64,000 bases of DNA from a virus: IMG/VR virus record IMGVR_UViG_3300005805_000045, positions 64,001-128,000 of that record; one strand, written 5' to 3'. Of this stretch, positions 33,299 to 52,183 are shown one piece after another. A program made the translations under genes and the position numbers. Numbering within the stretch: the first letter of the stretch is position 1; every line of letters begins with the position of its first letter. The notes beneath the pieces were generated by a model. That model was given only the letters and a program-made list of their open reading frames with translations, made no database searches and had not been told where the DNA came from.

Positions 33299-33910
33299 TT
33301 ATTTATTCGCCAATTTTTCATTCATCTTCCTCAGCACATTTTTCACCTTACCACTGTCATACTCAACAAACGGTAACACCTTATCAGCAAGGAATCGAAT
33401 CTTGCTCCACAGAATATCATCCTTGCCAATCCGATCATCGAACTTATCGAAGAACTTCACATACACATTGAATACGACCATCGTTTCTATTGAAAGAGTG
33501 TTGTTCAAGTATCGTGTAATCAACTCTGGATATTGACTAGATTTGGTCTTGAAGATATCAGATGGATCATCAACACCATCAAACAGTTCGTTCAACTCAT
33601 TCTCAAAATGATATGTAAAGGCTTGCTTGCGTTTCATAAAAGCAACATATGTGTCATCACACTCATCATCAAGAAAGTCACCAATCCAGGACTTACCTTT
33701 TATAAAGTTAGCCACTAGGAAATCCTGAATTTGGTTCTTGTCATACTTTCGGCACAGTTTTTGGAACTGAAACTTGTCCTTTCTAGCCAAAAAGGAATCT
33801 TGTGAAGCGTTGACTTTACCTTGATACTTGAAGAAGTCGTATTTTTGGTTAGTGAAATGATTCTTCAGGGCAAGAAACAAGCAATATGTTTCATACGCAG
33901 AAAGTCTCAT
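33299..33910 (-). CDS. gp59: Helicase loader gp59
   Basis: Y..FLALKNHFT..KYDFFKY.GK, FLVANF, ISIET; synteny with gp32 and gp33. Confidence 0.92.
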   Translation of the reverse strand: MRLSAYETYCLFLALKNHFTNQKYDFFKYQGKVNASQDSFLARKDKFQFQKLCRKYDKNQIQDFLVANFIKGKSWIGDFLDDECDDTYVAFMKRKQAFTYHFENELNELFDGVDDPSDIFKTKSSQYPELITRYLNNTLSIETMVVFNVYVKFFDKFDDRIGKDDILWSKIRFLADKVLPFVEYDSGKVKNVLRKMNEKLANK

Positions 33911-34304: not shown

Positions 34305-34733
34305 TTAGAGTTGAATCACCTGACTATTGTTGCGTTTAGCTTCATCATAGTCATTTCTATCCACAGTGAGTGTGGAACATGACAATAATTCAAATTCTTT
34401 GAGTTTTTGGAGGACGATTCTCACGTCAAAGTTTTTACAAGAAAAGAGATCAAACTCTATGAGAGCAGGGTTGACCTCATCCCAAACGTGGATCGAGAGG
34501 TGGGAAAAATCTAGGATAGCCACCGCTGTATGGCCCTTGTTGCCTTCCATATCTGAATAGACAACGAGTGGACCACCGATGACCTTCATACCAACTTGAG
34601 TAATAACACTCTTACACCAATCTGCTAGAGAATCTGCTTCTCTAGGAGGATTTGCAACATAAGCACGAATGATGATGTGTTTATGGTCTCTAACAATTGG
34701 TTGTGTCATTTCTTTAAATCTGAATACCTCCAT
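34305..34733 (-). CDS. speD: Pyruvoyl-dependent S-adenosylmethionine decarboxylase family proenzyme
   Basis: HKHII, G.TAVAILDFSHLSIHVWDE, FDLFSCK.F. Confidence 0.8.
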   Translation of the reverse strand: MEVFRFKEMTQPIVRDHKHIIIRAYVANPPREADSLADWCKSVITQVGMKVIGGPLVVYSDMEGNKGHTAVAILDFSHLSIHVWDEVNPALIEFDLFSCKNFDVRIVLQKLKEFELLSCSTLTVDRNDYDEAKRNNSQVIQL

Positions 34734-34743
34734 GGAAATAAAA

Positions 34744-35138
34744 GTGGTGGCCCGTTTCTTTTATGGGTGGTACCATACCCCTATTCAAGACATAATCAAG
34801 AATAGCTGATATGTTCTGTTTCTAGGTCATCAGCATACCCAATGAGATCAGGCTGCTAGAGCCATCTCAAATGGTGCGTTATCATTGGCACCTAAGTTTT
34901 TCTTGCGTTACGTAGCTTGCGCACGGTATCTCCACAATCTTCCATCCGTCTGTCAATCCTGTTTCACGCCCATCAAAGATACACAAAAGTTTCTCCAACA
35001 GTATTATATCTGCCTTAACTGTTGACTAGCACTAATTGAAATAATTAGTCAGAAACTAAGTCCTTTTGTGTATCTGTGGTGGACGTGTGCGGTACTGCCC
35101 CGCAGTCCAGTCCGTCTTCCAACAGCTTCATCGATACA
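34744..35138 (-). ncRNA. ssrA: Two-piece (circularly permuted) tmRNA
   Basis: Acceptor piece ends CACGTCC-A-CCA at 35077; coding piece starts GGGCGTG at 34971 (G3-U70 Ala determinant); tag ORF 34848-34889 ANDNAPFEMALAA*. Confidence 0.93.
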
Positions 35139-35142
35139 GATG

Positions 35143-35150
35143 TATTTATA
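35143..35150 (-). promoter_or_regulatory. Late promoter TATAAATA driving the tmRNA
   Basis: Perfect consensus directly upstream of the acceptor piece. Confidence 0.85.
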
Positions 35151-35843
35151 TCAGGAGTATTTCTTTTTGTCAAGATGGTAATCATAAATCTTCTGAAACA
35201 GATTCAACTCATAATCTTCTTTACGTTTGACGAAGACCTGTGGATCAGGTTCATTGTCCACGGAAATGATGATGACGATTTGATCGATGGGAATGCCAAC
35301 ACGTTCTTCATACATGAAACTGTATGCGGTTGTCTGTTCAAAATAGTTCTGGATGAACTTCTCAGGTTTGATTTTGGTTGAGGTCTTGAAGTCAATGACA
35401 CTCAGTTCCCCATCGAACTCACCAATCACGTCTGTTCGACCTGCTAGTCGCATCTTGGTCGAGTAAAGCGGACACTCGATATAATGGATGTTATCAATGC
35501 GATCAAGAGTTGGTCGCATGTCATAGAAAGCCTGACGCTGATCAGGCATCACGCCTTCGTGCAACACTTCTTTGATTGGTTTGTTTTCGAGATACCGTTC
35601 CATCATCGAATGGAACTTGGAGCCTCGAGTCGTCGCGCGATTGGTTATTCTGTTTGCTTCTTCATGTCCAACGCGACTTCTCCATTCTTCAATGCTCTTC
35701 TTTTTGAAATGACCAAGCACAGTTGTTACAGATGGAAATGATTCACCTGTTGGAATGATGTAGTGTCTCGCGCCGTTGACTTCCTTAGTTGAAAGTGGCT
35801 GGAGCTTTGGAACCCCAGCCACATAGTTGAATGTTTTTGTCAT
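35151..35843 (-). CDS. PD-(D/E)XK exonuclease (Cas4/lambda-exonuclease-like)
   Basis: PSVTTVL, RG..FH, AGRTD...VIDFKTS, Q..AY. Confidence 0.88.
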   Translation of the reverse strand: MTKTFNYVAGVPKLQPLSTKEVNGARHYIIPTGESFPSVTTVLGHFKKKSIEEWRSRVGHEEANRITNRATTRGSKFHSMMERYLENKPIKEVLHEGVMPDQRQAFYDMRPTLDRIDNIHYIECPLYSTKMRLAGRTDVIGEFDGELSVIDFKTSTKIKPEKFIQNYFEQTTAYSFMYEERVGIPIDQIVIIISVDNEPDPQVFVKRKEDYELNLFQKIYDYHLDKKKYS

Positions 35844-35846
35844 GCT

Positions 35847-36008
35847 CTATTTTAATTCACCTTTTTCCTTCATCATCTTGATGAACTCTTCCCGCATCTT
35901 CTTATACCAAGACAAGCTCTCGATCATGCTGTTGAACGATTGTGGTTTCCGTTCTGCTAGAAACTCGTCCAACGCCTTCTTGAACTCTTCACTTCCGATG
36001 GTCATCAT
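35847..36008 (-). CDS. 53-aa hypothetical protein
   Basis: MMTIGSEEFKKALDEFL...; fills the operon gap. Confidence 0.6.
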   Translation of the reverse strand: MMTIGSEEFKKALDEFLAERKPQSFNSMIESLSWYKKMREEFIKMMKEKGELK

Positions 36009-36012
36009 TTGT

Positions 36013-36540
36013 TCAGTCCTTTGGCATGAAGGTTATTCTTCGTCTCTTCTTTTCGGGTCTGCGTAGTTGATACTCTGTTTCGCCGTAAGGGTTTCTTGGT
36101 GCGCCTAAGTCTCCTTGACCATATCTCGTTGGACCATACTCGTCTTTCTCACCTTTACGCGCGGTGCCAGTGTAGATCGCAGTGCCTTTACCGTCGGGCG
36201 TTCTGTGGATGTAGGCGTCTTGGTCATACTTAGTAGACAGTTCGTGTACGTGCTTCAAAAGCTCTTTACCATGTTCATCACTCGTGCCTCGAGCAAAGAC
36301 GTGCAAAGAGTTTTCGCTGCCTACGCCGCCACCCTCATCCCACTTGCCCTTTGTCTTCCTGAAGCCGAACCCTCGATTCCTGAGTTCACCCTTCAGCTCC
36401 TTCATCCTAGCAGCATTCTCCTTGGGTGTCAAGTGCTTCCTTTCAGGTGAGAAGATGGCTGAATGACCCTTGAATGAAGCAACGCGAGACAGGGGATTAC
36501 CCTCTGTTAAGTATGTCCGTAGTTCTTTGAAAGTTTTCAT
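36013..36540 (-). CDS. T3-type SAM lyase (SAMase) homologue with capsid-targeting-like leader
   Basis: IFSPER..LT..EN..R..L...L; G.W.E....ENS; L..KYDQD pattern matches the T3 SAMase family; N-terminus MKTFKELRTYLTE. Confidence 0.65.
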   Translation of the reverse strand: MKTFKELRTYLTEGNPLSRVASFKGHSAIFSPERKHLTPKENAARMKELKGELRNRGFGFRKTKGKWDEGGGVGSENSLHVFARGTSDEHGKELLKHVHELSTKYDQDAYIHRTPDGKGTAIYTGTARKGEKDEYGPTRYGQGDLGAPRNPYGETEYQLRRPEKKRRRITFMPKD

Positions 36541-36547
36541 GGTTAAC

Positions 36548-37144
36548 CTATTTGAGTTCCTGTGTATCGTTTCTTAGTTTATCAAGTCTATTTAACCAAC
36601 CCTTGTGATACTTACCGTATTTATCTGGGTTACTGGTTGCCAAATGGTCATAATGATCTTTCCTGCCTTGAATCAGCTTGTCATAGTTGTCGCCATGCTC
36701 TTTAGCCAATTTTTGAGCGAAGCCTTTGCCTTGATTGATAGCAGCGTCTAGCACGACCGCGCGCGATCTGTGGCTTAGATGGTTGAGTTCACCCATACCC
36801 TCGAAGTAGTGCTTGCGATAAATCTCTTTGGCATCATCTTTGGTCAGGTTAGCGATGTCAACGTCTGGGTGAGCATTCTTGCTGATGCCATATCTCGTCA
36901 TGCCGCCAGTGTCGTGTGTTACTTTACCAGCAGGTCCTTCGTACTTGAATGTCCTGTGTGCAAAGCCTTCGAACTCTTTTTCACGATCTTCGTGCTTCTT
37001 GAGCAGTGCAGCAATGCTATCGGGCTTGCTCATTCTTCTGATCAAGCCACCGATGTGATCTTCTTTGCCTGCAGGAGCAGGATGAATGATTGCTGGTGGA
37101 GATTGTGCGGCGTCTTCTTCGATGAATTGTCTAAACGTCTTCAT
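36548..37144 (-). CDS. GH108 lysozyme (TtsA-like) with capsid-targeting-like leader
   Basis: YEG..DTGG.T.YGIS, LT.DDA..IY...Y, D.AINQG, KGWLNR; N-terminus MKTFRQFIEE. Confidence 0.85.
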   Translation of the reverse strand: MKTFRQFIEEDAAQSPPAIIHPAPAGKEDHIGGLIRRMSKPDSIAALLKKHEDREKEFEGFAHRTFKYEGPAGKVTHDTGGMTRYGISKNAHPDVDIANLTKDDAKEIYRKHYFEGMGELNHLSHRSRAVVLDAAINQGKGFAQKLAKEHGDNYDKLIQGRKDHYDHLATSNPDKYGKYHKGWLNRLDKLRNDTQELK

Positions 37145-37662
37145 TTGAACTTTCCGTCTAATATGTCCTCGATGGGAATTGGTTTGTAGTTAGTTCTCTC
37201 CACAGAAACATTCACATAGCCATCTTTGTCGATCTTCTTTTCGTGTATGTGACCATGAACGTTCAGCGAGGTTGGATACATGCTGAAGTCATTGATCGGG
37301 TAATGCGTGAACAACAAATCTCTCTTGAACATGCCTTTAGTAGCGAGTGATGCCCTGATGCTACTGAAGTATGGAATGAACCTCGCAGCATCGTAATCAT
37401 GATTGCCCATAATGAGCGTTTTGATCCCATTCAATCGTGCGAGCGTGACACCATAAAATTCTGGATGACCAAAGATAACATCACCGACGTGTATCACGGT
37501 GTCCTTTGGTTTGATGATCGAGTTCCAATTCTCAATCATCACTTCGTTCATGTGTGTCACGTCTTTGAAATCAGGCCTCATCAAACTTCCATCAATGCAC
37601 CTGAACGACAGAATATTCGCATGATTGAAGTGCGTATCAGATATAACGAAAACATCACCCAT
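37141..37662 (-). CDS. Calcineurin-like metallophosphoesterase
   Basis: SDTHF, HVGD, GNHD, THYP, HGHIH. Confidence 0.92.
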   Translation of the reverse strand: MGDVFVISDTHFNHANILSFRCIDGSLMRPDFKDVTHMNEVMIENWNSIIKPKDTVIHVGDVIFGHPEFYGVTLARLNGIKTLIMGNHDYDAARFIPYFSSIRASLATKGMFKRDLLFTHYPINDFSMYPTSLNVHGHIHEKKIDKDGYVNVSVERTNYKPIPIEDILDGKFK

Positions 37663-37666
37663 TCAT

Positions 37667-38812
37667 TCACTTCCTTGTTTTGGCCATAGCCCGCTGATTA
37701 TAAGAGTCCTTCATTGCAGCAATGTTATCCTTAGACAACGTTGGGTGATCAGGGAAATGGTGCTGCAATAGCTTGATGATTGGGTCTTTCTTGCCGTGAT
37801 CTGTCTCTCTGCCACCAGGAAGATCGTGTCTGGCCGCAACTTGTGACTCCTCGCCATAAAGCAAATGAGTGAAGCGATGGGCAAATTCATGCTGCTGTTC
37901 GGGAGTGCCGTGTGCCTTCACCGCAGCGATGGTTCCGTGAATCGAGCTGGTGTCTGTGCGCTTGGGGTTGAAGCCCTTGCCGAAGATCATCTTGCCGATG
38001 TTGTGTGGATGCAGTTCACGTTCAGCACCCTTTGATGGTAGCTCTTCGTGAATTGGCAACTTGCTTACTGGATCAACACGTCCTGTGTCTCGTGTCTTTG
38101 CTCTTGCTCCGGGAGCAACCTTGCCACCGATGCTGAGTGTTACACCAGACTCGCCTTGCTTGAGACCTCTCTTGCCCTGAATCATCACTGGCTTTCGCAT
38201 TGACGATGCAGCGGCTCTTAGTGCGACTTTTGATGCTAGTCCAGGAACAGAAGGATGTGACCCCGAGGGGAACATATCTCCCTTGGGTGTGTTCTTGTAC
38301 CACATCGCACCTTGATCAGGCTTGTTGTTCTTGTCGTGCTTCATTGGACTCAAATCAACCTGCGTGACTTGTCCAGTTTTCTTATGTTTCCAGAGAGTGA
38401 ACACACCACCTGGGTCATGTGGATCATCTGATCCTTTGACGTGAACTAGATCATGATGCTCTGTTGATAGCTTACCAACATGATCTTTGAGTGCATGAAG
38501 GTTCTTTAGTGTGTGCTCGTCATCTTTGACAACGTAATCAAGGTCACCAAACTTTTTCTTTCCCACTCTATGAAACTCAGAATCAGGAATTGAAGTATCA
38601 TGGAAATGCTCTGCTGATCCTACTGGAGAAACAGGTGTGCCCCCGAGATGTTGTGATAGCACACCCCTGATTGCATTCGCATGAGGCAGCATTTCTTTTC
38701 TTTGGTGGATTCCAGTAGGCGTGGAACTAACAGTGTTACCATGCTCGTCAGAGTATTGAAGATTGCCGCCTTCTTTGAGTAAGGAATACTGTCTGAAACT
38801 AAGCATGTCCAT
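37667..38812 (-). CDS. Pol-beta superfamily nucleotidyltransferase-like protein
   Basis: VGS..., FGDLD, QVDL catalytic pattern; N-terminus MLSFRQYSLLKE-GGN. Confidence 0.65.
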   Translation of the reverse strand: MDMLSFRQYSLLKEGGNLQYSDEHGNTVSSTPTGIHQRKEMLPHANAIRGVLSQHLGGTPVSPVGSAEHFHDTSIPDSEFHRVGKKKFGDLDYVVKDDEHTLKNLHALKDHVGKLSTEHHDLVHVKGSDDPHDPGGVFTLWKHKKTGQVTQVDLSPMKHDKNNKPDQGAMWYKNTPKGDMFPSGSHPSVPGLASKVALRAAASSMRKPVMIQGKRGLKQGESGVTLSIGGKVAPGARAKTRDTGRVDPVSKLPIHEELPSKGAERELHPHNIGKMIFGKGFNPKRTDTSSIHGTIAAVKAHGTPEQQHEFAHRFTHLLYGEESQVAARHDLPGGRETDHGKKDPIIKLLQHHFPDHPTLSKDNIAAMKDSYNQRAMAKTRK

Positions 38813-39875
38813 GCAGCCTTTCTAGTTGTGGAATCGTGTCTGTTCTAAGGCCACCGCGCTCTTCGATCTTCTTATTGAATCTGGAAACGACTTCATGGTA
38901 ATCTTCTGGGCTGACATGACCTTTCTTGACAGCGTTACTCATGGCTCTATGCATCTCGACCATAGACGAGTCCTCAGATAGCTTTGAACCTAAACGAGAC
39001 CCAAGCCACTCATGTTGTCTGGTGCCACCGTGGGCTGCTCTGTCTTCAGCAGATGTTTTGACGAGTCCATTTGGATGATCTTTGAAACGGGGGAACACAC
39101 GACCTTTGACGAGTGACAATTTCTTGGCACCGCCTGGTTCTTGGTTCTTTCCTGGCTTTCCTGTCTTCTCAGAAACCTCGAGCTTGTTTGCAGGATGTGC
39201 TCCGCCGAGTACAGAAACTGCGGCCTCTGCAAAGGCGTTTCTATGTGCGCCCTTGATCTTTTGATCCAAGTCTTCTCTGTGTGAACTGTTGGCAACGATG
39301 TGTGATGGGTCCATTTCTTCACCCTTGGGACCTTTGGGTGTATGCAATAGATCGATCTGCACAGGTGTCGTGTGACCTTCAGGATGATGGAAATGGAATA
39401 GAGCACTGGTAATACCAGAGCCATGTCGTGTCATGCTTTGTAGCGACATGTGACCAAATCGATTGTCCTTACCATCATTCTTGAACATGCCATGCAAATG
39501 GTTCTGAGACTCTTCGGTTGCGTGAGTATCAATATCGTTGAAATCTTGCTTACCCCATCTGGCCAAATCTTTTGGGGTAGTCTTCTTGTCCATGATGGGA
39601 CCAGTCGAGCCGCCATACTTGATGCCCTTTGAACCAAAGATATTGTGCCCAGCTCTCTCATGAAATCTCTTGCCGAACTCTTCCAGAGAACTATGAATTG
39701 CCTCTCTGTGGTCAGTGCTGATTGGCTCGCTTGCAACGTGACCTTCTCTGGCATCAGTCTTTGGCACAGGCAGAACTGGAATCGCTTTGCCCTTGGGTGT
39801 GGGAAGAAACATGTTCGTCCCGCCACCCTCTAGGAGAAAGTAGTTCTCGATTACAAACTGTTTGAAGGTTTTCAT
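38799..39875 (-). CDS. Pol-beta superfamily nucleotidyltransferase-like protein (paralogue)
   Basis: GGST..., FNDID, VQIDL; N-terminus MKTFKQFVIE..LLE-GGG. Confidence 0.65.
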   Translation of the reverse strand: MKTFKQFVIENYFLLEGGGTNMFLPTPKGKAIPVLPVPKTDAREGHVASEPISTDHREAIHSSLEEFGKRFHERAGHNIFGSKGIKYGGSTGPIMDKKTTPKDLARWGKQDFNDIDTHATEESQNHLHGMFKNDGKDNRFGHMSLQSMTRHGSGITSALFHFHHPEGHTTPVQIDLLHTPKGPKGEEMDPSHIVANSSHREDLDQKIKGAHRNAFAEAAVSVLGGAHPANKLEVSEKTGKPGKNQEPGGAKKLSLVKGRVFPRFKDHPNGLVKTSAEDRAAHGGTRQHEWLGSRLGSKLSEDSSMVEMHRAMSNAVKKGHVSPEDYHEVVSRFNKKIEERGGLRTDTIPQLERLHGHA

Positions 39876-40579
39876 AGTCCCATTTCCGTTCGTTTGATGA
39901 TGTAGTCTCGCACGAGACCTGACCGAACAATGTCCTGCTTCTCAAACTCGATGTAAGCGAACTTGTTCATACGTTTTGTGATATTTATAAAACTCATAAG
40001 GCCACTTTTGTCAGTCTCCTTCACTAGGTCAGTTTGTCGGAAGTCACCACAGAACATGATCTTGGAATAGTCGCCCATACGGGTCATGACTGTATCGAGT
40101 TCTGGGAACGTCATGTTCTGGAGTTCATCGACGATCACGACAGCATTGTTGAACGTGATACCACGAAGAAACGATGTGGTTGTGAAGTGAATGATGCCGC
40201 GCATTTTCAAAATGTCATAACCATCACCTCGACCAAAGAGTTCATCACAAATTTCCTTGTAGGGTTCTTCGTATACGCGAATCTTCTCTTTCACACTACC
40301 AGGAAGGAAACCAATGTCACGAGAAGGAACAACAGAGCGAACGATGATGACTTTATCATAGTTGCTTGATGATGACAGCACTTCATTTAACGCAAGATAC
40401 AAAGAAATGTAAGATTTACCAGTACCAGCATAACCATGAAGCATCAAATTAGAACCACGATTGTAGGCTTCGAAAGTCAGCTGTTGATTTGGTGTGAGTG
40501 GAGAAACTGTTCTGAGTTCGAAATGATTACGTTGCGCAGTCTGTTGATCTTGTTGCTTCTTGACTTTACGTTTTGACAT
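39872..40579 (-). CDS. phoH: PhoH-family ATPase
   Basis: GYAGTGKS, IGFLPG, FLRGITF, VDELQN, GDFRQTDL, DIVRSGLV; ATG 40579 has an AAGGAG RBS. Confidence 0.95.
   Translation of the reverse strand: MSKRKVKKQQDQQTAQRNHFELRTVSPLTPNQQLTFEAYNRGSNLMLHGYAGTGKSYISLYLALNEVLSSSSNYDKVIIVRSVVPSRDIGFLPGSVKEKIRVYEEPYKEICDELFGRGDGYDILKMRGIIHFTTTSFLRGITFNNAVVIVDELQNMTFPELDTVMTRMGDYSKIMFCGDFRQTDLVKETDKSGLMSFINITKRMNKFAYIEFEKQDIVRSGLVRDYIIKRTEMGL
39982..39989 (-). promoter_or_regulatory. Late promoter TATAAATA inside phoH, upstream of the NTase operon
   Basis: Perfect consensus about 107 nt upstream of ATG 39875. Confidence 0.7.
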
Positions 40580-40596
40580 AGTTTCTCCTTTATGCG

Positions 40597-40628
40597 AAAA
40601 AGGGACCTTCCTTAGAGAAAGGCCCCTT
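40597..40628 (-). terminator. Intrinsic terminator-like hairpin between the FmdB-like gene and phoH
   Basis: AAGGGGCCTTTC..GGAAGGTCCCTTTTT on the minus strand. Confidence 0.55.
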
Positions 40629-40670
40629 GCAATTTTCTTAAATTTAGGAATTGTCTTCTTACTCAACTGA

Positions 40671-40934
40671 TCAAACTTCCTTGGCTACGTCCCACCGTCG
40701 ATTGCCAATCTCAGTATGCGGATTGGCTGCTTTGACTTTGCCTAGAACATACTTTGAAAAGTCTGAGGGTGGTTTTGATACGCCGATACCAGCAGGATCG
40801 ACAACATTGAGTTTATTGTAGATTCGTTCGTGTTTAGGATTGTCTTTTTCGTATTGTTCCATTTCAGAGATGGACATAGAGAGATCAAATACTTCACCAG
40901 TATCAGTGTTTTGATATGTGTAATTAGGCATCAT
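40671..40934 (-). CDS. FmdB-like small regulatory protein
   Basis: MPNYTY....TGE.F...MS.SE...Y...NP pattern; TATAAATA at 40951-40958. Confidence 0.7.
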   Translation of the reverse strand: MMPNYTYQNTDTGEVFDLSMSISEMEQYEKDNPKHERIYNKLNVVDPAGIGVSKPPSDFSKYVLGKVKAANPHTEIGNRRWDVAKEV

Positions 40935-51649: not shown

Positions 51650-52183
51650 TTATACTCCGAATTTATGAATCTTGAATTTCTTATCACCTTCTTCTACTGT
51701 TTTAGCACCAAGATGTTTCAAATTTTGATTTCTAGCAATCAAAACTTCATTTTCGTGGCCACCAAGATGAACGGCTAAAGAGTTTTCTGGCAACTCAATA
51801 TGTGCGATATGATGATAACCGTCTTCAGATTTTACAGAATAACCTTTAGCAGAATCTTTGTGTGGTGAAGAAGAAATATATGTAGGAGTTCTACCATTCT
51901 CAATAAGAGATTTGTGCGCATTTCTGCCTAGAGCAGAATACACATTTAGTTTTTTTGGTATTTTATTATTCTCAATAAACCTGTCAATGTGTTCTACATC
52001 TGAATGATTTTTTCCAGATAATAGAGCATCATTGACAGGCTTGCTATTTTTAATATATCTTTTGATTTCTTTCGTATGCTTCGGTGCACCCAGTTGAACA
52101 TCAAGTGATTTGCGTCTTTCCAAATGTTTATTGTCATCGGCAGCAAACCAATTTTCGTACAAAAAAGCCTTGAACCCAAGCAT
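51650..52183 (-). CDS. Alt/Mod-like ADP-ribosyltransferase with capsid-targeting-like leader
   Basis: Y...S..VN..L, VYS, YISSS, ENEVL (ExE); N-terminus MLGFKAFLYE; AATAAATA late promoter at about 52209-52216. Confidence 0.7.
   Translation of the reverse strand: MLGFKAFLYENWFAADDNKHLERRKSLDVQLGAPKHTKEIKRYIKNSKPVNDALLSGKNHSDVEHIDRFIENNKIPKKLNVYSALGRNAHKSLIENGRTPTYISSSPHKDSAKGYSVKSEDGYHHIAHIELPENSLAVHLGGHENEVLIARNQNLKHLGAKTVEEGDKKFKIHKFGV

Follow-up and report, generated by a model that had tools for sequence, protein, structure and literature searches.

A putative T3-type SAM lyase with a head-targeting leader and a predicted active-site partner in an uncultured marine T4-like phage

Introduction

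We describe an open reading frame of an uncultured marine phage that probably encodes the precursor of a T3-type SAM lyase, a head cargo that would be injected with the phage DNA and silenced in the producing cell by a 53-aa protein encoded next to it. In the mechanism we propose, a 13-residue leader would bind the prohead scaffolding core, and a gp21-type head protease would cut after E13 (L-x-E), leaving a 162-residue enzyme amid the packaged DNA. At infection the enzyme would enter the host with the DNA and split SAM into methylthioadenosine and homoserine lactone ahead of all phage gene expression, and this depletion would starve SAM-dependent defences, for example type I restriction and BREX. 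The 53-aa protein, placed over the catalytic pocket, would keep the late-made enzyme silent in the producing cell and, having no leader, would stay behind. Of this scheme, we infer the activity, packaging, cleavage, timing, injection and defence target of the enzyme and the inhibitory role of its partner.

The SAMase of phage T3 is an early-expressed enzyme that depletes SAM and counters type I restriction-modification and BREX. It must first be transcribed and translated, whereas a pre-made, injected enzyme would act from the entry of the DNA, and it is at this point that type I restriction and BREX settle the outcome. The enzyme, its association with virions and the idea of an injected anti-restriction function are not new and were anticipated by work on the Synechococcus phage S-CREM2 (PMC10665884). 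What is new here is the architecture of leader and cut site across the whole family, together with the predicted partner at the active site. We found no paper that joins a SAM lyase with a capsid targeting sequence.

Results

Genome and gene context

The window, the whole stretch of DNA analysed here, comprises 64,000 nucleotides, bases 64001-128000 of a complete virus genome of 163,885 bp with direct terminal repeats and 39.5% G+C. A T4-type head module is encoded in the same genome, with matches to Peptidase_S77 (gp21 protease, 127 bits), T4_CASP (gp22 scaffold, 237 bits) and Gp23 (475 bits), and gp32 is ~60% identical to the gp32 of marine cyanomyoviruses and of Pelagibacter phage HTVC008M. 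As judged from sequence, this head module and the gp32 likeness place the phage as an uncultured marine T4-like myovirus of ~164 kb. The lyase is the only PF23780 gene of the genome (26.2 bits in the whole-genome scan). The features discussed below are collected in Table 1.

We also noted that gp23 carries a pre-region of ~52-68 residues, with L-N-E at positions 50-52 and the Pfam Gp23 domain starting from residue 69 (L011:5564-5863; G000:C1 about 33563-33862). This N-terminal L-N-E fits a cut of the gp21 type, as in T4.

Table 1 Features of the lyase locus and other leader-bearing genes (window coordinates unless marked G000:C1)
Feature	Position	Strand	Basis or remark
SAM lyase precursor gene	36013..36540	-	175 codons + stop, ATG start; ORF listing, PF23780 26 bits, homologues
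Capsid-targeting leader, codons 1-13, ending L11-x-E13 (predicted head-protease cut site)	36502..36540	-	IPII/IPIII resemblance
Predicted mature enzyme, putative T3-type SAM lyase barrel, codons 14-175	36016..36501	-	AF2 model and fold comparison
G65-x-W67 and E76, codons 65-76	36313..36348	-	hhalign; T3 G55, Y57, E68; Svi3-3 G56, Y58, E69
Q-D, codons 107-108	36217..36222	-	hhalign; T3 Q94-D95; Svi3-3 Q104-E105
Conserved 53-aa ORF, predicted active-site-covering partner	35847..36008	-	4 nt after lyase stop; complex model
Four genes upstream of lyase in run	36548..39875	-	junctions overlap or <= 7 nt apart; three with leaders
GH108 muramidase, leader-bearing	36548-37144	-	N-terminus, Pfam
Calcineurin-like metallophosphoesterase, mid-run, without leader	37141-37662	-	Pfam/PHROG matches
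Protein of 381 residues, no Pfam family, leader-bearing	37667-38812	-	N-terminus
Protein of 358 residues, no Pfam family, leader-bearing	38799-39875	-	N-terminus
TATAAATA, T4-type late-promoter motif	39982..39989	-	within phoH 3' end, 114 nt before first gene of run
AdoMet decarboxylase (speD) gene	34305-34733		PF02675, E 1e-10; 1,280 nt downstream of lyase
ADP-ribosyltransferase-like protein, leader-bearing	51650-52183	-	PF03496, E 2e-5
HEAT-repeat protein and DUF7178 protein, leader-bearing	G000:C1 28844-30478, 31000-31878		just downstream of gp23
74-aa DUF5661 protein, leader-bearing	G000:C1 46152-46376		

Sequence and predicted fold of the lyase

The original prediction had aligned the product of this gene by eye with the motifs of T3 SAMase, noting that the Glu and the Q-D are kept and that Trp replaces Tyr. 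An hhalign comparison of the family profile with T3 gp0.3 reproduced this alignment column for column. In it, the S-x-x-R block pairs with T3 S16-R19, G65-K-W67 with G55-C-Y57, E76 with E68 and Q107-D108 with Q94-D95, so that the signature residues of T3 SAMase are kept except for the aromatic one, where W67 stands in place of Tyr57, a position that contacts the sulfonium. The G-x-aromatic, Glu and Gln-acid residues bind and orient SAM according to studies of Svi3-3 and the T3 enzyme (PMC7877911). The E69Q mutant of Svi3-3 is nearly dead and the E68Q/Q94A double mutant of T3 SAMase is inactive. Among close relatives of the window protein G65, W67 and E76 are invariant, and in an alignment of 47 relatives, reaching down to 23% identity, the only invariant columns are E13, E76 and Q107.

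Profile searches placed the protein in the same family. PF23780 (S-AdoMet_lyase) matched residues 29-128 with an E-value of 1e-5 and 26.0 bits, against a curated cut-off of 28 bits, and phrog_2226, the PHROG that contains T3 SAMase, matched with an E-value of 0.0015. Nearly all of the 18 relatives found at 39-63% identity are recorded with PF23780, and three members that we tested directly against the profile (P0021, P0075 and P0170) passed its threshold. Identity to T3 SAMase itself is ~11-16%, and the PDB yielded no SAM lyase when it was searched by sequence alone, be it with the single protein or with the family profile; the relation to SAM lyases is thus visible only through the Pfam and PHROG profiles, hhalign and the comparison of folds. 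A tblastn search of 50,697 phage records with the lyase returned nothing at an E-value of 1e-3. With the family profile we retrieved 874 representative clusters at E <= 0.001, and distant members reach the isolates P-TIM68, S-CREM2, S-H34, S-N03 and P-SSM2, Campylobacter phages of the CP220-like type and Alishewanella phages. PADLOC recognised neither the lyase nor the small ORF, nor either of the two unknown proteins that bear the leader.

The PF23780 domain also occurs in large fusions. One of these (among P0071, P0055 and P0058) joins GNAT, SAM-lyase and poly(A)-polymerase domains in a protein of 1,591 aa, and some other fusions carry two lyase-type domains.

A first structural model, built with 17 sequences, had a pLDDT of 70.7 and already gave T3 SAMase as its top match (Z 12.3); a second AF2 model, built with 47 sequences, had a pLDDT of 90.1. 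When the model was compared with 48,161 chains by VIA-align, T3 SAMase (7ock_L, Z 15.0) was the only match with Z >= 8, and the two superposed over 141/152 residues with an rmsd of 3.1, covering model residues 17-175. The top Foldseek match was again T3 SAMase (8bb1_E, E 2.3e-5, TM 0.71), with Svi3-3 weaker (Z 7.6, TM 0.41). The T3-type identity first proposed from the motifs is therefore borne out by a predicted SAM-lyase fold, by the kept signature residues and by relatives that bear PF23780, and these support the description of the product of 36013-36540 as a diverged T3-type SAM lyase of putative activity. The likeness extends to the kind of assembly. T3 SAMase is a monomeric nine-stranded barrel, whereas Svi3-3 is a trimer with its active sites between subunits; the whole predicted mature protein superposes on the T3 enzyme, including the C-terminal strands that close the monomeric barrel, and in the model it corresponds end to end to the T3 type and not to the Svi3-3 trimer. 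What it has in common with Svi3-3 (PDB 6ZM9), on which the reaction mechanism was established, is the ferredoxin-like core and the signature of Gly, aromatic residue, Glu and Gln-acid pair.

The same fold, packaged in the same way, could act on another substrate, either a derivative of SAM, for instance SAM-AMP, the signal of type III CRISPR, or a different sulfonium or nucleotide compound. SAM lyases and SAM-AMP lyases have only the Glu and the Gln in common, there is a phage SAM-AMP lyase that leaves SAM uncut, and the aromatic residue of the window protein is Trp and not Tyr. The SAM-AMP-specific C. botulinum lyase and phage AcrIIIB4 candidate (9GAD) belongs to the same superfamily and keeps the Glu and the Gln. 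However, it is a far weaker structural match to our model (9gad, rank 33 in Foldseek, E 0.29, TM 0.41) than T3 SAMase, which the model matches over its full length, and the set of G-x-aromatic, Glu and Q-D is the SAM lyase set. We consider a substrate other than SAM unlikely.

An even less probable reading, to which we give very little weight, is that the protein is catalytically weak or inert and that it binds a host factor, for example the SAM synthetase MetK, or acts mainly as head filler. By binding MetK, T3 SAMase counters BREX even when it is catalytically dead, and the internal proteins of T4 need not be enzymes (PMC9026906). On the other hand, the residues needed for catalysis are invariant across the family, and the MetK-contact residues of T3 SAMase are not recognisably kept here, as far as can be extrapolated from the alignment.

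A leader that resembles those of T4 internal proteins

The precursor starts with M-K-T-F and carries a leader that ends in L11-T12-E13 and is followed by G14; this segment lies outside the part that superposes on T3 SAMase. The leaders of T4 IPII and IPIII, which we read from the T4 genome, have 10 residues and end in I-A-E, and the window leader has M1, K2 and T3 in common with them, together with an aromatic residue at position 4 and an acidic or amide residue at position 6. For targeting in T4 the important leader positions are 4 and 7, for processing they are 8 and 10, and gp21 cuts after L/I-x-E (PMC9026906). The window leader departs from the T4 leaders in its length, with 13 residues instead of 10, and in having Leu where T4 has Phe7. 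Leaders of this type head 8/216 gene-like ORFs of the genome where 0.0013 would be expected from composition, a figure that is a rough guide, the pattern having been defined after the ORFs were seen; internal matches to the pattern numbered 0 in 52,158 residues. The capsid-targeting leader that had been claimed for this gene is thus confirmed in its IPII/IPIII resemblance, its recurrence at the head of other ORFs and its L-T-E end.

The other proteins that bear the leader are diverse (Table 1). The ADP-ribosyltransferase-like protein resembles T4 Alt, and BLASTP detects no paralogy between the two proteins of 381 and 358 residues (E 0.048). Together the leader-bearing ORFs look like the head cargo set of this phage.

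Further indications come from the lyase family. Its domain opens with a conserved block, G-N-P-L-S-R or S-S-L-S-R, and across the family L/I/V-x-E stands directly before this start, whether the pre-sequence has 10 or ~150 residues. Relatives of the short form have a leader of exactly 10 residues, and in others a spacer of 50-150 residues follows the leader. We scored 90 representatives, and most of them have L, I, V or F at the -3 position of the cut site. The cut motif is thus kept whatever precedes it, as predicted for a cargo processed by a protease, and these patterns support the view that the leader acts as a portable tag for head targeting and ends in a site that the head protease would cut. 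From the conserved site the mature N-terminus can also be predicted precisely. Of the best 150 family representatives, many begin with this same leader and cut site; given the size of the family, delivery of SAM lyases from the head may be common among marine T4-like phages and not a peculiarity of one isolate.

Long-form lyases such as P0006, P0012, P0013 and P0020 (L007:6001-6924, L012:2076-2999) have a conserved pre-domain of ~135-150 residues. It has the appearance of a large propeptide, lying between the N-terminal leader and a second L/I-x-E site.

A member of the family has been found in virions. Gp6 of S-CREM2, a T4-like Synechococcus phage, was annotated as a 'SAM hydrolase' and detected with 19 peptides in CsCl-purified virions, and its authors proposed that it enters the host and shields the DNA from restriction (PMC10665884). 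It is 37% identical to the window lyase over 105 residues (E 5e-10), in an alignment that begins at the cut site. Both proteins come from T4-like marine phages and have the same leader type, and gp6 has two L-E-E sites before its domain. In contrast to the window protein, gp6 is 414 residues long, continues into a long C-terminal extension and has Tyr as its aromatic residue. Neither a targeting leader nor cleavage nor a partner protein is mentioned in the S-CREM2 paper (PMC10665884).

The leader might nevertheless not be a packaging signal in this phage, and the enzyme might act in the producing cell and never be injected, in which case it could, for example, stop methylation or redirect methionine or adenine salvage. 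The leader is longer than that of T4 and differs at a position that is important for targeting in T4, and early transcription of the gene is possible (see below). Against this, the leader heads eight unrelated ORFs, among them two beside gp23 and the Alt-like ADP-ribosyltransferase; the cut-site Glu is invariant in the family and the cut motif persists at any length of pre-sequence; and a homologue is present in the virions of S-CREM2. We find this reading improbable.

Transcription of the lyase run and its neighbours

The lyase gene closes a run of five tightly packed genes on the minus strand, which follow in the order 358-aa protein, 381-aa protein, metallophosphoesterase, GH108 protein and lyase. 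The TATAAATA motif near the head of this run lies 3.4 kb upstream of the lyase gene and is one of 7 matches in the window, all on the minus strand, where 2.8 were expected. In two relatives (L007 and L008), AATAAATA is found at -96 of the lyase gene, again within phoH, which directly precedes the lyase gene in relatives. A scan of positions 34600-40800 for sigma-70 promoters and terminators gave nothing above chance. One sigma-70-like site does lie ~300 nt upstream of the lyase, inside the GH108 gene, and sites of this kind are not above chance; with this site, early expression of the lyase is possible. By its promoter motif, the run is consistent with late transcription. The original prediction had called the enzyme late-made, and this is one of the two weaker parts of what it proposed: a late-type TATAAATA was indeed found at the head of the run, but the case consists of the motif, at a distance of 3.4 kb. 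A further perfect TATAAATA occurs at window positions 35143-35150, also on the minus strand, directly after the exonuclease gene.

A SAM decarboxylase gene ~1.3 kb downstream of the lyase had also been predicted, and speD is indeed located there (Table 1). The further suggestion that the two SAM-consuming enzymes form a cluster is the other weaker part, as the closest relatives have no speD in this stretch, which in them retains phoH, lyase, small ORF and exonuclease. Since these nearest relatives keep the block without speD, we read its proximity as synteny, which is probably coincidental, and not as a sign of a two-enzyme module. If anything, a late need of SpeD for SAM conflicts with the presence of a free late SAM lyase.

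In several relatives NUMOD3-type genes that resemble homing endonuclease genes lie beside phoH or between phoH and the lyase (L009:5124-5819, L013:1221-1631, L015:651-1163). These insertions mark the phoH-lyase junction as an insertion hot spot.

A small protein predicted to cover the active site

Directly downstream of the lyase lies a conserved ORF of 53 codons, for which we found 18 relatives at 43-59% identity and no Pfam match. We examined its context in the window, in L007-L010 and L012-L020 and in the contig of P0030, and in every case it starts 1-4 nt after the PF23780 gene, except beside the distant P0030, where the distance is 67 nt. Insertions have entered the surrounding block. Four genes have come to lie between phoH and the lyase in the window; at this place L013 has a gene like those of homing endonucleases and L015 one like those of cytidylyltransferases, and in L009 two genes are inserted between the small ORF and the exonuclease. 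The pair of lyase and small ORF was never split by an insertion in the contexts examined.

A complex of the mature lyase with the 53-aa protein was predicted with an ipSAE of 0.88 in three runs, compared to 0.00 for the best of three controls. At least 92% of the contacts were common to the runs, and the pLDDT of the partner was at least 89. In the calibration of the tool the ipSAE mark was reached by 58/80 solved complexes and by 2/110 mismatched pairs, a comparison that holds only roughly here, as our own alignments were used and the partner alignment in the complex job had 3 rows. On the lyase the predicted contacts are residues 65-71, 74, 76, 78, 107-111, 121, 133-135 and 152-155, that is, the signature pocket and an invariant N-P-Y-G-E-T motif, and on the partner they are residues 21-37, the invariant core of the 53-aa family. 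The model thus predicts a partner that covers the active site of the lyase, and this partner may silence the enzyme in the producing cell.

Going further, we tentatively propose, and rate as somewhat short of an even chance, that the 53-aa protein is a dedicated inhibitor that keeps SAM available for the phage SpeD and is left behind or destroyed when the head matures, so that the enzyme is armed only in the next host. If the partner is an inhibitor, it would explain how a SAM-destroying enzyme can be made late without harm to the SAM-using steps of the phage, and it would be the first protein inhibitor of a SAM lyase. The two would form an enzyme-antidote pair for an injected phage weapon, and such a logic has been described neither for the internal proteins of T4 nor for a SAM lyase. 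If it binds tightly, the small protein might also be packed into the head along with the enzyme and keep it blocked. We considered in addition that an inhibitor might guard the phage's own DNA methylation, a role that is unsupported: a family search of the whole genome found no DNA methyltransferases of the Dam, Dcm or N6/N4 types.

The small protein might instead be an obligatory subunit, a lid or a folding helper of the lyase, or merely a syntenic neighbour that does not bind it. In this phage group synteny extends over the entire block, from phoH through the lyase and the small ORF to the exonuclease, which makes adjacency alone weak evidence, and the complex model is silent on the effect of binding. 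Furthermore, a more distant partner has Leu in place of the Met that contacts W67, and the small ORFs downstream of the lyase genes of P-TIM68 and S-CREM2 have no detectable relation to the partner family. However, the ipSAE of 0.88 stands against controls at 0.00, with contacts that centre on the pocket formed by G65-W67, E76 and Q107-D108; T3 SAMase is active without any such subunit; and gene insertions flank the pair and never fall within it. We therefore regard these other roles as rather doubtful, though a good deal less so than a change of substrate. A search for long proteins in which the small partner is fused to the lyase found none, which is weak evidence on the relation of the two.

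The small partners P0189 (L016:1969-2235), P0179 and P0185 have a C-terminal tail of ~25 residues followed by a Gly-rich run. The same module serves as the spacer between leader and lyase in P0003, P0004, P0008 and P0014. The two partner genes thus appear to exchange a module.

Discussion

Like the T4 proteins IPI, IPII, IPIII and Alt, which are cut by the gp21 protease, the lyase precursor has a short N-terminal leader of the pattern ending L/I-x-E, and like them it would belong to a polymorphic cargo set delivered with the DNA, of which IPI is an anti-restriction protein. In contrast to the T4 internal proteins, the leader has 13 residues and the putative cargo is an enzyme that destroys a metabolite, not a stoichiometric inhibitor of a nuclease. 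The leader and its cargo set would also extend the T4 protein-packaging system to new types of cargo. We also asked whether T4 IPII and IPIII are themselves SAM-lyase-like and rejected this, as neither has a PF23780 match in Pfam. T3 SAMase lacks a leader and, among the early proteins, is made first once the DNA has entered, whereas the window gene has a leader and belongs to a run headed by a late-type motif.

The dose delivered in this way may be small. T4 packs ~360 copies of each internal protein (PMC9026906), compared with the ~10,000 SAMase molecules that T3 makes per cell. A small marine host cell would, we infer, hold a correspondingly small pool of SAM.

Two proteins of cultured cyanophages that are annotated as hypothetical, PSSM2_114 of P-SSM2 (L004:3001-3510) and gp123 of P-TIM68 (L005:3983-4498), are PF23780 members with the same leader type. 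PSSM2_114 is surrounded by structural genes, and an annotated virion protein is encoded two genes away.
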